IMG/VR virus record: IMGVR_UViG_3300042387_001967
Direction: 5' to 3' (one strand)
DNA from: a virus
Length of the DNA: 64,000 bases
A program made the position numbers and the translations under genes. Shown in pieces: positions 4,778 to 6,540 of this stretch. The notes under the pieces are model-generated. The model had not been told where the DNA came from. It was given only the letters and a program-made list of their open reading frames with translations, and ran no database searches. Each line of letters opens with the position of its first letter. The first letter of the stretch is position 1.

Positions 4778-5086
4778 CTAGTTCGGAATTCGTTCTGCGT
4801 CCCGCATCCGCTGCTGAGCGCAACGCTTGTCCCACGCGACGCGGTCGTAATAGACATCGATCATGTCGACGGACAAACGCGGGTCCACTATGAATGGCAG
4901 ACCACACAGAGCATTGAAGAACATGTCGGCGCGCGACAGCAGGTCGTGCTCCAACCTCAGAATGTCTTCCGCCTGCGGGCTGATCGCTATCCCGACCGGC
5001 GATACCGCGGGACGCTCAGCCGCAAGCATCGCGGCGAGCGCGCCACCAAAGTCAGGCCCGGGGCTCGTGGTGAATGTCCCTGTCAT
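4778..5086 (-). CDS. hypothetical protein
   Basis: ATGA-coupled to the upstream gene; 102 aa. Confidence 0.55.
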   Translation of the reverse strand: MTGTFTTSPGPDFGGALAAMLAAERPAVSPVGIAISPQAEDILRLEHDLLSRADMFFNALCGLPFIVDPRLSVDMIDVYYDRVAWDKRCAQQRMRDAERIPN

Positions 5087-5535
5087 GGCAGCGCCTTCGT
5101 GGTGGAAGATGTCGGAAGCGCGAGCCCGGCAAATCCGCGTTCCTTCAGCGTCTCGTAGAGCGTCGCTCCCGACGCATCCTGCGCATACGGCAAGAAGACC
5201 TGCTCGAGTTCCGCCAGCCCGGCGCTCACCAGCGCCAACTGCGCGGCGAGCCAGTCTTTCACGATGCGCCACGCAACGCGCGCGGCCTGCTCGTGTGTCT
5301 TCAGTTTGGGAGTGACGTTCTGCCGCACAAGCACCTGATATATCCTCGGCACGTTTGATGGCAAACGAAAACTCATCAGTCCCGCCGCCGTCTGAATCCG
5401 GAAGCTCAGAGCGACCAGCACGCCGTCGGTATACTCGGTCATCACAGCCTGCGCCTTGGCCTTCGCGAGCATAGCCTGGATCTCCGTCACCGTTTTCTCC
5501 GCAGCAATCTGTGTATTATAATTCAGGATGGGCAT
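5083..5535 (-). CDS. conserved phage hypothetical protein
   Basis: MPILNYNT...KT..EIQ..L...FRLP...EQAARVAWRIVKDWL.AQ...VFLPY, a common phage family pattern. Confidence 0.8.
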   Translation of the reverse strand: MPILNYNTQIAAEKTVTEIQAMLAKAKAQAVMTEYTDGVLVALSFRIQTAAGLMSFRLPSNVPRIYQVLVRQNVTPKLKTHEQAARVAWRIVKDWLAAQLALVSAGLAELEQVFLPYAQDASGATLYETLKERGFAGLALPTSSTTKALP

Positions 5536-5574
5536 ACGTCTCCTTCGCCGTTCGCCGCGTCGAATTTTTCCTGC

Positions 5575-5895
5575 TCATCGTCGTCCAACACCCCCTCCGG
5601 CGTCGGCTGCGTCGTCGAGGTCGTAGTTCTGCGCCTTCCTGCCTTCGAGCAGTATCAGCGCGAAATCCCGGTTATTGAGTCCGGTGAATTTCCACTCCGC
5701 GAGTTCTTCCTTTGTGACCGGGATTGGCTCGCCGTCTTCTATCCACGTCACTTTTTCGAGCGGCACACTTTCCACGGTTGCGAGGTATGCCATCACTCTC
5801 CGAAGGTCTTTCATTTCCACGCGAAGCCCCGGCGCAGAACCCGGCGCTGCGCTAGAACGCGCCTCCTGTGTGCTATTTTCGGTTTCGGTTTTCAT
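5575..5895 (-). CDS. hypothetical cassette gene
   Basis: 106 aa ORF; start codon lies in the loop of one attC-like site and the C-terminus runs into the next. Confidence 0.65.
   Translation of the reverse strand: MKTETENSTQEARSSAAPGSAPGLRVEMKDLRRVMAYLATVESVPLEKVTWIEDGEPIPVTKEELAEWKFTGLNNRDFALILLEGRKAQNYDLDDAADAGGGVGRR
5583..5632 (+). repeat. attC-like site (short)
   Basis: GTCCAAC ... GTTCTGC ends (RYYYAAC/GTTRRRY-like) with an imperfect internal palindrome. Confidence 0.45.
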
Positions 5896-5953
5896 AGAGT
5901 TTTCAGTGTTTTCGATGCGCTATCACGGCGCGTCTGTGAGCTTTGCGGTGGGC
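5834..5953 (+). repeat. attC-like site (120 bp)
   Basis: GCAGAAC-ccggcg-CTGCGC...GAACGCGCC / GGCGCGTC...GTGAGC-TTTGC-GGTGGGC with an AT-rich loop; same R-L-loop-L-R layout as integron attC. Confidence 0.6.
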
Positions 5954-6540
5954 GAACTTCCTTCGTGCGAGCGACGCGCAGCTTCCCACCCCGCCAAGAA
6001 TACCTCTTGGTGAGTTAGTCGGGGCCACACTCCGCGCTTGTCGCACCATTGCAGGAACGCCCATTCCGGCCCCTCCTCCCACTCCTTGTTCGCCCGGCGC
6101 TTCTCGTCGTCGCCCACCACGCTAGTGCAGCGAACGGCGGTCTCAGGTTGTTTGTCGTTTTCAGTGTTCATAAAGGTTGTTTCTTCTCCGCGCGCGCCGG
6201 CCCTGCAGAACGCATCTGCAGGGCCGGCGTAGATGTCGTCCCCGTGTAGAGCCACCGTCACCGTCGCGTCGGCGAACATCTTGGTCAGCCACTCTGCAAG
6301 GGGCAGCGCCGGACCCTCGCACCAGGCGTCATGGATCAACCCGGCGATCAACGGGACCATGTGGTAGCGCCAAGGGTAGTCCCAATCTTCTCCCTCCGCG
6401 TGGATGATGGCGTCGCCGGGTTCGGTGATCGCATCGGCCAGCTCACCGCATAGGCCGTCCCAGTCTTCCACGGTTTCGCCGCGCGCATCCAAGAACGCCG
6501 TCGCCAGATTGGGAATTTCCTTGGAAGCGGGGTCAGACAT
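5923..6540 (-). CDS. hypothetical protein, probably an in-frame fusion of two genes (second start MNTENDK near 6170)
   Basis: ATG at 6540 overlaps the upstream gene end; an internal GGAG plus ATG sits inside an attC-like remnant. Confidence 0.55.
   Translation of the reverse strand: MSDPASKEIPNLATAFLDARGETVEDWDGLCGELADAITEPGDAIIHAEGEDWDYPWRYHMVPLIAGLIHDAWCEGPALPLAEWLTKMFADATVTVALHGDDIYAGPADAFCRAGARGEETTFMNTENDKQPETAVRCTSVVGDDEKRRANKEWEEGPEWAFLQWCDKRGVWPRLTHQEVFLAGWEAARRSHEGSSPTAKLTDAP

Follow-up and report, generated by a model that had tools for sequence, protein, structure and literature searches.

A probable hypervariable slot for small accessory genes in the replication/recombination module of a 184-kb phage

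Introduction

Short inverted repeats lie among a run of small open reading frames (ORFs) at positions 5041-6829 of a phage sequence (virus record IMGVR_UViG_3300042387_001967), and the question that this locus raises is by what route such genes come and go. The stretch that was analysed, here called the window, comprises 64,000 nucleotides (nt), the reverse complement of positions 28381-92380 in a complete virus record that is 184,016 bp long and has direct terminal repeats; the guanine-plus-cytosine (GC) content is about 61%, and every gene around 5041-6829 lies on the minus strand. An initial annotation had read the small genes as integron cassettes bounded by attC hairpins and shuffled by an integrase supplied from elsewhere.

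The locus is instead probably a hyperplastic (hypervariable) slot for small accessory genes within the replication/recombination module of a complete lytic-type phage, remodelled by general recombination. It is situated between a Mre11/Rad50-like nuclease pair and a helicase/RecU-like operon. Relatives of the phage differ in gene content within the slot, the positions of the junctions between shared and unshared sequence can be mapped, the proposed sites do not fold as attCs and the genome contains none of the recombinases sought, and the conserved blocks around the repeats are coding sequence. The recombination pathway behind the joins we infer from this pattern.

Gene content and junctions of the slot

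The slot and its borders contain the following features (window coordinates, lengths in amino acids, aa).

6831-9422, minus strand: gene for a Rad50/SbcC-like ATP-binding cassette ATPase, 863 aa, with a CPLC zinc hook (Pfam SMC_N, AAA_23, SbcC_Walker_B)
6533-6817, minus strand: Cys-rich 94-aa ORF, an insertion of about 300 nt found in this phage only
5923-6540, minus strand: 205-aa ORF, comprising the core of a gene family here called N-fam and an 82-aa gene in one frame
6190-6540, minus strand: N-fam gene core, Cys-His-Asp hydrolase-like, here without a stop codon of its own
6195-6229, no strand: hairpin with a perfect 15-bp GC-rich stem and a 5-nt loop, at the 3' end of the N-fam module
5923-6171, minus strand: 82-aa gene (block B), in frame with N-fam
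5575-5895, minus strand: 106-aa ORF, for which gene callers give an alternative start at ATG 5814 (79 aa)
5083-5535, minus strand: 150-aa gene, phrog_17260 (PHROGs, E 8e-5), the right-hand conserved part of the slot
5083-5086, minus strand: ATGA stop/start overlap of the 150-aa and 102-aa genes, with an extra gene nearby in relative L035 (region 5083-5113)
4778-5086, minus strand: 102-aa gene, 3' neighbour of the 150-aa gene

The Rad50/SbcC-like gene forms the conserved left border, remaining 98-99% identical to the related contigs L001, L002 and L035 until 6824-6829, and the 150-aa gene is 95-99% identical in L001 and L035. Five arrangements of the intervening sequence were recovered, four of them among close relatives with 95-99% identical flanks; contig L034 represents the same phage as the window. 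The gene orders compared here are these.

Window: Cys-rich gene, N-fam fused to block B, 106-aa ORF (block A), 150-aa gene, 102-aa gene
L035/L036 (95-99% identical): N-fam, 103-aa, 151-aa, 89-aa and 102-aa genes
L001/L002 (98% identical flanks): N-fam remnant with leader and 95-aa gene, then 85-aa, 150-aa and 102-aa genes
L003 (about 75% identical, a distant relative): a GroES-like gene alone

In L035/L036 the stop codon of the Rad50-like gene is joined directly to N-fam through an ATGA overlap, and N-fam is a free-standing gene of 130 aa that carries the same hairpin. Relative to this arrangement, the Cys-rich insertion of the window occupies about 300 nt (about 6823-6521) and also replaces the first seven or so codons of N-fam, and the 82-aa and 106-aa genes form a unit that runs from 6178, about 15 nt past the hairpin, to 5626, the point at which the common tail is joined to a different "head" in L035. 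That head belongs to the 103-aa gene that follows N-fam in L035/L036, which ends in the acidic tail YDLDDAADAGG... The extra 89-aa gene of L035 falls between window positions 5113 and 5096 and is bracketed by ATGA(A)CAGG, a short direct repeat providing 8-9 nt of microhomology around the stop/start overlap. In L001/L002, 650 nt stand in place of window 6824-5594 and contain 19 leftover codons of N-fam, a different body attached to the leader of the 106-aa ORF, and an unrelated Cys-rich gene of 85 aa.

Junctions were mapped at 6829, 6520, 6469, 6178, 5901/5861, 5626, 5594 and 5113/5096, and every one of them lies at a gene end, in a leader or in a tail. Genome-wide, about 40 gaps break up the collinear blocks.

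Two genes of the relatives deserve a separate remark. The extra 89-aa gene (L035 1697-1966) begins MNRRTFVKRAVGATIGATIG..., resembling a twin-arginine signal peptide. In L003 the whole slot (8591-9226) is a single 211-aa gene whose Cys-rich N-terminus is fused to a GroES/Cpn10 domain (Pfam E 8e-19).

Genes would be gained, lost and replaced in such a slot through the phage's general recombination between co-infecting relatives. The likely route would start with illegitimate or short-homology joins at gene boundaries, to be followed by homologous exchange in short conserved segments, that is, in 5' leaders and in conserved N- and C-terminal coding blocks; the joins that survive would be those that leave the neighbouring genes translatable. 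Such a filter could explain why the junctions occupy leaders, dispensable C-terminal tails and overlaps of stop and start codons, and could likewise account for by-products of the same selection among joins, namely the 205-aa in-frame fusion, the 19-codon N-fam remnant of L001 and a frameshifted borrowed tail. The placement of the junctions is the pattern expected of general recombination filtered by selection, and such a slot is in keeping with a phage whose genes on either side of it specify Mre11/Rad50-like, helicase and RecU-like functions.

Tests of the predicted attC sites

Two inverted repeats had been taken as the ends of cassettes, with arms as follows.

5626-5635, no strand: arm GTTCTGCGCC, partner at 5831-5840; encodes KAQN, the final codons of block A, and marks the head/tail recombination junction
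5947-5955, no strand: arm GGTGGGCGA, partner at 6110-6118; encodes SPT, the last conserved codons of block B

Direct reading confirmed that GTTCTGCGCC (5626-5635) and GGCGCAGAAC (5831-5840) are exact reverse complements, as are GGTGGGCGA (5947-5955) and TCGCCCACC (6110-6118). The small ORFs are without exception on the minus strand, and the peptides quoted in the initial annotation are encoded there. The assessment of these repeats as attC sites rests on folding and on consensus rules. Folded as single-stranded DNA on both strands and compared with dinucleotide shuffles, the attC-shaped sites (5583-5635, 5831-5955, 6110-6210 and 5041-5107) gave z scores of +0.04 to +2.75, no better than random and mostly worse; the stretch put forward as a weaker attC, 5041-5107, gave +0.45 and +0.04. 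Six attC sites proven to recombine with IntI1 (Table S3, PMC9892861) were taken as folding controls, and in the same test they formed single hairpins with R'' and R' paired, at z -1.5 to -7.7.

Consensus rules lead to the same picture. Between 4500 and 7000, no RYYYAAC...GTTRRRY pair with a separation of 45-150 nt occurs on either strand, and relaxed AAC/GTT pairs (at least 6 of 7 positions complementary) number four, against 3.9 +/- 2.9 in shuffles. The sole pair complementary at all seven positions (5951-6094) lies within coding sequence and folds only moderately (z -2.1 and -2.75), and the R'' and R' boxes proposed for 5583-5632 are complementary at 4 of 7 positions.

The reported lack of an integrase is borne out, as PF00589 had no match in the complete 184-kb genome and matched all control genomes. 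An integrase gene is not a requirement for a cluster of attC sites lacking integron-integrases (CALIN). The complete genome likewise contained no match to a serine recombinase (PF00239), a reverse transcriptase (PF00078) or a Y1 transposase (PF01797), and a diversity-generating retroelement, a retron and an invertase were rejected given the lack of a reverse transcriptase and a serine recombinase.

Breaks had been predicted at the G^TT and G^GT positions of the sites, and the forecast holds in part. Junction 5626/5627 falls within resolution of G^TT and the conservation boundary at 5947 coincides with G^GT, but most other junctions do not comply: the breakpoints in the closest relatives at 6829, 6520, 6469, 6178, 5901, 5861, 5594, 5113 and 5096 all lie away from the proposed crossovers. 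Nor do a gene and its supposed attC move together, the segments 5842-5947 and 6119-6210 not being common to the contigs that share the gene. The peptides described as attC-encoded are ordinary parts of proteins; AVRCTSVVG and SSPT belong to the conserved N- and C-termini of the 82-aa family, EARSSAAPGSA is a fast-evolving leader and AKLTDAP a fast-evolving tail. What survives of the cassette-shuffling proposal is that the small genes are swappable and that its four zones are real module boundaries; the attC/IntI mechanism is not supported.

Conserved blocks of two small genes

The 106-aa ORF consists of an A-rich leader, a conserved core designated block A (5841-5626) and an acquired acidic tail. 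It belongs to a family of seven proteins, in which a low-complexity N-terminal leader precedes the core (..GSAP.VRVEMKDLRR...EGRKAQN) and variable tails follow it. Block A is 80-92% identical in the unrelated contigs L005/L006, L008, L011, L012/L013 and L014, and its core is protein-coding, because variable columns number 18, 15 and 42 at codon positions 1, 2 and 3. A structured non-coding RNA was considered for block A and rejected (fold z -1.0, third-position bias, no Rfam match).

In all contigs the similarity across block A stops at 5626; its opposite limit is 5840, 5841 or 5850. These limits coincide with the outer ends of the 10-nt repeat, just as 5947 is the outer end of the 9-nt arm in block B. 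They are in part boundaries of constraint rather than joints, because the fast-evolving leaders upstream of block A are homologous and so are several of the tails (those of L008 and L014, of L011 and L012, and of the window and L015, the last apart from a 3-nt indel). At 5626 the window records a single past joining event, both sides of which are visible through L005 and L035. Native tails measure 1-24 codons, most of them 1-12, and with tails so short it is no great surprise that the join should fall exactly where the core stops. Beyond this join, the acidic tail YDLDDAADAGG... is common to a different gene in L035. One extra G in the G-run at about 5590-5596 of the window relative to L035 shifts the frame of this shared tail, which ends ..DAGGGVGRR and stop in the window and ..DAGGVLDDDEQEKFDAANGEGDVCPS and stop in L035, the latter reaching into the start of the 150-aa gene.

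Block B is found in unrelated metagenomic contigs as well. Contig L004 shares 6168-5947; in L015 and L016, whose middles differ, the shared parts are confined to 6193/6175-6108 and 5976-5946/5947, and nucleotide similarity to all three contigs stops at 5946/5947. Proteins P0070 and P0072 similarly keep the N-terminal (..AVRCTxVVGD) and C-terminal (..RR....SSPT) segments around middles that differ. A protein search with the 82-aa protein returned only P0001. Within the family, the window groups with L004 by its middle; by its tail it groups with L015, and L004 then pairs with L016. From this mixed grouping, crossovers lie inside the shared C-terminal block of 30 nt, in agreement with homologous exchange at short conserved segments.

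Pattern scans for further contexts of the blocks found none in the viral collection, and one match in the metagenome scan (L017) that is attributed to chance. The middle of the 82-aa gene (5948-6097) in addition forms a slightly better fold than its shuffles (z -2.1 and -2.75) and is closed by GGGCGAAC and GTTCGCCC, in which the C-terminal arm has a second partner.

Frequency and placement of the inverted repeats

Repeats of this kind, whose paired arms stand 154-196 nt from each other here, are no more frequent than chance predicts, whether counted overall or at gene ends. Inverted 9-mers at a spacing of 50-400 nt number 165 in the window, against 164 +/- 19 in dinucleotide shuffles, and 10-mers 31 against 42 +/- 10; between 4500 and 7000 the counts are 10 against 5.1 +/- 3.2 and 2 against 1.3 +/- 1.5, respectively. 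Inverted repeats of at least 9 nt join the two ends in 4.1% of 122 small genes of this genome, compared with 5.0% when 5' and 3' zones are paired at random. At the 82 junctions with a 98% identical relative (G002), two abutting repeats were found against 1.5 expected (k at least 9), without enrichment, and both are local terminator hairpins. The array of 21 genes in L005 contains two gene-end repeats against 0.5 expected, which was likewise rated as no enrichment. Duplex energies between 5' and 3' ends are those of random pairings (p 0.69), folding of arm against arm is inconsistent (z +0.35 to -4.1), and the arms of block A show no compensatory changes, with 8 of 10 positions kept in L011, 9 of 10 in L005 and both arms lost in L009.

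Some observations weigh against a slot in which the repeats are mere bystanders. The arms of both repeats coincide with the ends of conserved blocks (5841/5626, 6108 and 5947), exactly so at 5626 and 5947 and with an offset of no more than 1 nt at 5841 and 2 nt at 6108; the arm at 6110-6118, which encodes VVGD, lies 2 nt before 6108, where the middles of L015 and L016 diverge. The chance of such a placement, given that repeats of this kind exist near gene ends, was estimated at about 1e-3, an estimate softened by the two- to threefold over-representation of the arm k-mers in the genome, which is due to codon usage. Next to block A in L005, moreover, a gene for a 66-aa membrane protein (3438-3638) carries a 9-nt GTT...AAC repeat, GTTAGCGCA/TGCGCTAAC, whose arms cover codons 2-4 and span the stop codon and so stand at the exact gene ends. 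This repeat may be a chance occurrence, as repeats of that length are about as frequent in the contig as expected.

Tests for a general rule behind the coincidence of the arms with block ends were all negative. The 9- and 10-nt repeats are most likely fortuitous matches among conserved codons (GSAP with KAQN, VVGD with SPT) without a role as recombination sites, and we infer their lack of function from these results. Two other identities were rejected for the repeats. An identity as Chi-like or over-represented sites is countered by the merely two- to threefold excess of the arm k-mers, and a transposon or miniature element bounded by terminal inverted repeats is contradicted by flanks without target-site duplication, by the single copy of block A and by the similarity of block B beyond arm 1.

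A fused gene and its stem-loop

A search of the 205-aa ORF against 1.8 billion representative proteins resolved it into two genes in one frame, with no homologue covering both halves. Residues 8-116 match about 70 proteins of 100-190 aa, the N-fam, in which C31, W57, H60 and W73 never vary and G29, H70 and D71 hardly ever do. The family has no counterpart in Pfam. Its AlphaFold model has a predicted local distance difference test (pLDDT) score of 91, and the best fold matches are weak ones to protein glutaminase (E 0.017, prob 0.96), NTAQ1 and other papain/transglutaminase-like enzymes; a sequence match to 8z3i is also weak (E 0.058). Judged from this model, N-fam may be a small phage-encoded deamidase or peptidase. 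Residues 124-202 match P0001 (82 aa, 86% identity), the start of which corresponds to the internal ATG at 6171. The fusion is not an assembly slip, because the 205-aa product has been recorded from 17 contigs and four sources; the two genes read as one ORF because an insertion past the 6195-6229 hairpin removed the N-fam stop codon.

The hairpin itself is the sole significant one of the slot (z -5.6 and -6.0), and its 5' arm encodes the conserved AGPAD. Together with about 15 nt beyond, it is identical in L035, where the N-fam stop codon follows 13 codons further on, and the homologue L007 (64% identical) lacks it. The stem-loop has no T-tract and is similar to other GC-rich ones in this phage. 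The hairpin is the 3' stem-loop of the N-fam module; an origin as "fold-back filler" was rejected, since hairpin and adjoining 15 nt are kept in L035 as part of that module.

Alternative explanations

It is extremely unlikely that 5583-5632, 5834-5953 and 6110-6210 are attCs of CALIN-type cassettes, recombined as folded single strands by a host-encoded or distant IntI. The variation of gene content among relatives and the agreement of 5626/5627 and 5947 with predicted positions speak for it, as does the occurrence of CALINs with functional attC sites in virulent phages (PMC9892861); because such clusters are already known there, the attC reading would not, even if right, amount to a new kind of system. 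Comparison with integron attC sites and CALINs (PMC9892861; IntegronFinder, PMC4889954) finds the same small single-gene units, mostly promoterless, in one orientation and without an integrase, with AAC/GTT-ended inverted repeats near gene ends. The locus differs in having no R''-L''/L'-R' hairpin where the validated sites have one, no R-box consensus on either strand, arms that enclose coding sequence rather than trail it, and putative attCs that are not transferred along with their genes; nine junctions out of register and the missing integrase complete the case against it. Stem-closed or "panhandle" cassettes of a non-integron type are also quite improbable, if somewhat less so. The end repeats, formed by the first and last conserved codons, would anneal where the DNA is single-stranded, and the cassette ends would be set by a break or a template switch at the base of the stem, with no dedicated recombinase; such cassettes would include block A (5841-5626), block B (arms 6118-6110 and 5955-5947) and the gene beside block A in L005. 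Block A is indeed bounded by its 10-nt repeat, of which 9-10 of 10 positions are kept in L005, L008, L012 and L014 and 8 of 10 in L011, block B ends at arm 2 and its variable middle begins 2 nt past arm 1 in L015 and L016, and the L005 gene has its GTTAGCGCA...TGCGCTAAC pair at the exact ends. Yet neither the junctions, nor the small genes of this genome, nor the L005 array are enriched in repeats, duplex energies are random and arm-to-arm folding inconsistent, the stem is broken in L009 and L011 without compensation, and the close relatives break at 5861 and 5594, off the stem feet. The 5' "boundary" of block A is moreover a gradual decay into a homologous leader, and the homologous 3' tails make the block ends partly boundaries of constraint. 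If such cassettes were real, they would represent a recombinase-free definition of gene cassettes in phages.

A third alternative is shuffling of the early promoter stem-loop (PeSL) type. Known from the hyperplastic regions of T4-type phages (Arbiol et al. 2010, PMC2839356; Comeau et al. 2014, PMC4122927), it involves repeated cassettes of a stem-loop and an initiation region that flank ORFs and supply the homology at which exchange takes place. It is consistent with the start of the unit of 82-aa and 106-aa genes 15 nt past the 6195-6229 stem-loop, and with an A-rich leader (AACACTGAAAAC, then ATGAA.AC.GA...) that is shared ahead of the gene starts at 6171 and 5895 and recurs before different gene bodies in L001, L004, L014, L015 and L016; the leader patch at 5901-5861 is the sole remaining similarity to L001 within the replaced segment. 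PeSL-like shuffling is nonetheless unlikely here. The leader 12-mer occurs just twice in 184 kb, the slot contains a single stem-loop, the junctions at 6829, 6520, 5626 and 5113/5096 lie in coding ends without a common motif, and no sigma-70-like promoter was found in 4400-7000 (0 against 0.5 expected, for a consensus that may not be of the host's type).

A feature of the leader extends beyond the slot. An A-rich initiation region without a Shine-Dalgarno sequence, followed by a hydrophilic leader (M-[KNS]-T-E/Q-...-Q/E-P-...) and often then AVRC(T/S), starts unrelated small genes at window 5861-5910 and 6138-6193, L004 2665-2700, L008 1431-1480, L014 363-400, L015 372-420 and 614-680, and L016 522-570, among them two DNA methyltransferase-like genes (L008 and L015). 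The pattern suggests that this phage community has a common module for translation initiation or for protein N-termini.

Relation to known mosaic regions

The transitions at the slot recall lambdoid phages, for which Hendrix, Juhala and colleagues reportedly described mosaic joints at gene boundaries and "morons", and for which a modular theory is said to go back to Susskind and Botstein. As in those mosaics, identity of about 98% gives way sharply to no similarity at gene borders, different "heads" sit on a common "tail", and selection for functional joins explains where junctions lie. The units of the slot differ from them in being single small ORFs without a promoter or terminator of their own, and several are fused in frame.

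The nearest described parallel is the hyperplastic regions of T4-type phages, with their PeSL-mediated modular shuffling (PMC2839356, PMC4122927). As there, differences between near-identical phages cluster in small ORFs between conserved core genes of a large lytic phage; these genes are mostly of unknown function and non-essential, they differ by insertion, deletion or replacement of single ORFs, and a stem-loop and a shared 5' leader stand at some module borders. In contrast to the T4-type regions, no repeated cassette of promoter and stem-loop is evident (the leader motif occurs twice, and the promoter search covered the sigma-70-like type) and several joins lie within coding ends.

Flanking features

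Further features border the slot on either side.

9934-11142, minus strand: gene for a Mre11-like phosphoesterase, upstream of the Rad50/SbcC-like gene
4748-4775, minus strand: intrinsic terminator with a 12-bp stem, a 4-nt loop and a T-rich tail, directly past the stop codon of the 102-aa gene at 4778 and closing the small-gene operon
Downstream of the terminator: a 211-aa gene, then a superfamily 2 helicase gene (2537-4039, minus strand), then a RecU-like gene

Searches of the small ORFs against Pfam, PHROGs and PADLOC returned phrog_17260, for the 150-aa gene, as the sole match, and the Cys-rich 94-aa ORF accordingly has no family in any of the three. The interval 4500-7000 had no match in the phage database (blastn, distant mode). 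Between the terminator and the 211-aa gene, two 20-nt direct repeats, TGTAGGCGTTCTGTGGGCGT and TGTAGGCGTCCTGTAGGCGT, lie 42 nt apart (4666-4729), and this stretch is partly kept in the distant relative L003 (9239-9302, 77%); the repeats are a candidate operator or promoter element.

Implications

Short AAC/GTT-ended repeats near gene ends are insufficient for attC calls, and folding against shuffles with validated controls separates such repeats cleanly from functional sites. The locus itself would be an ordinary example of the turnover of small accessory genes in large lytic phages, and a well-resolved one, with four close arrangements, junctions placed to the base, and an in-frame fusion and a borrowed tail as by-products. 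Its cargo genes are uncharacterised, the widespread N-fam among them, and are candidates for roles in host takeover or counter-defence.

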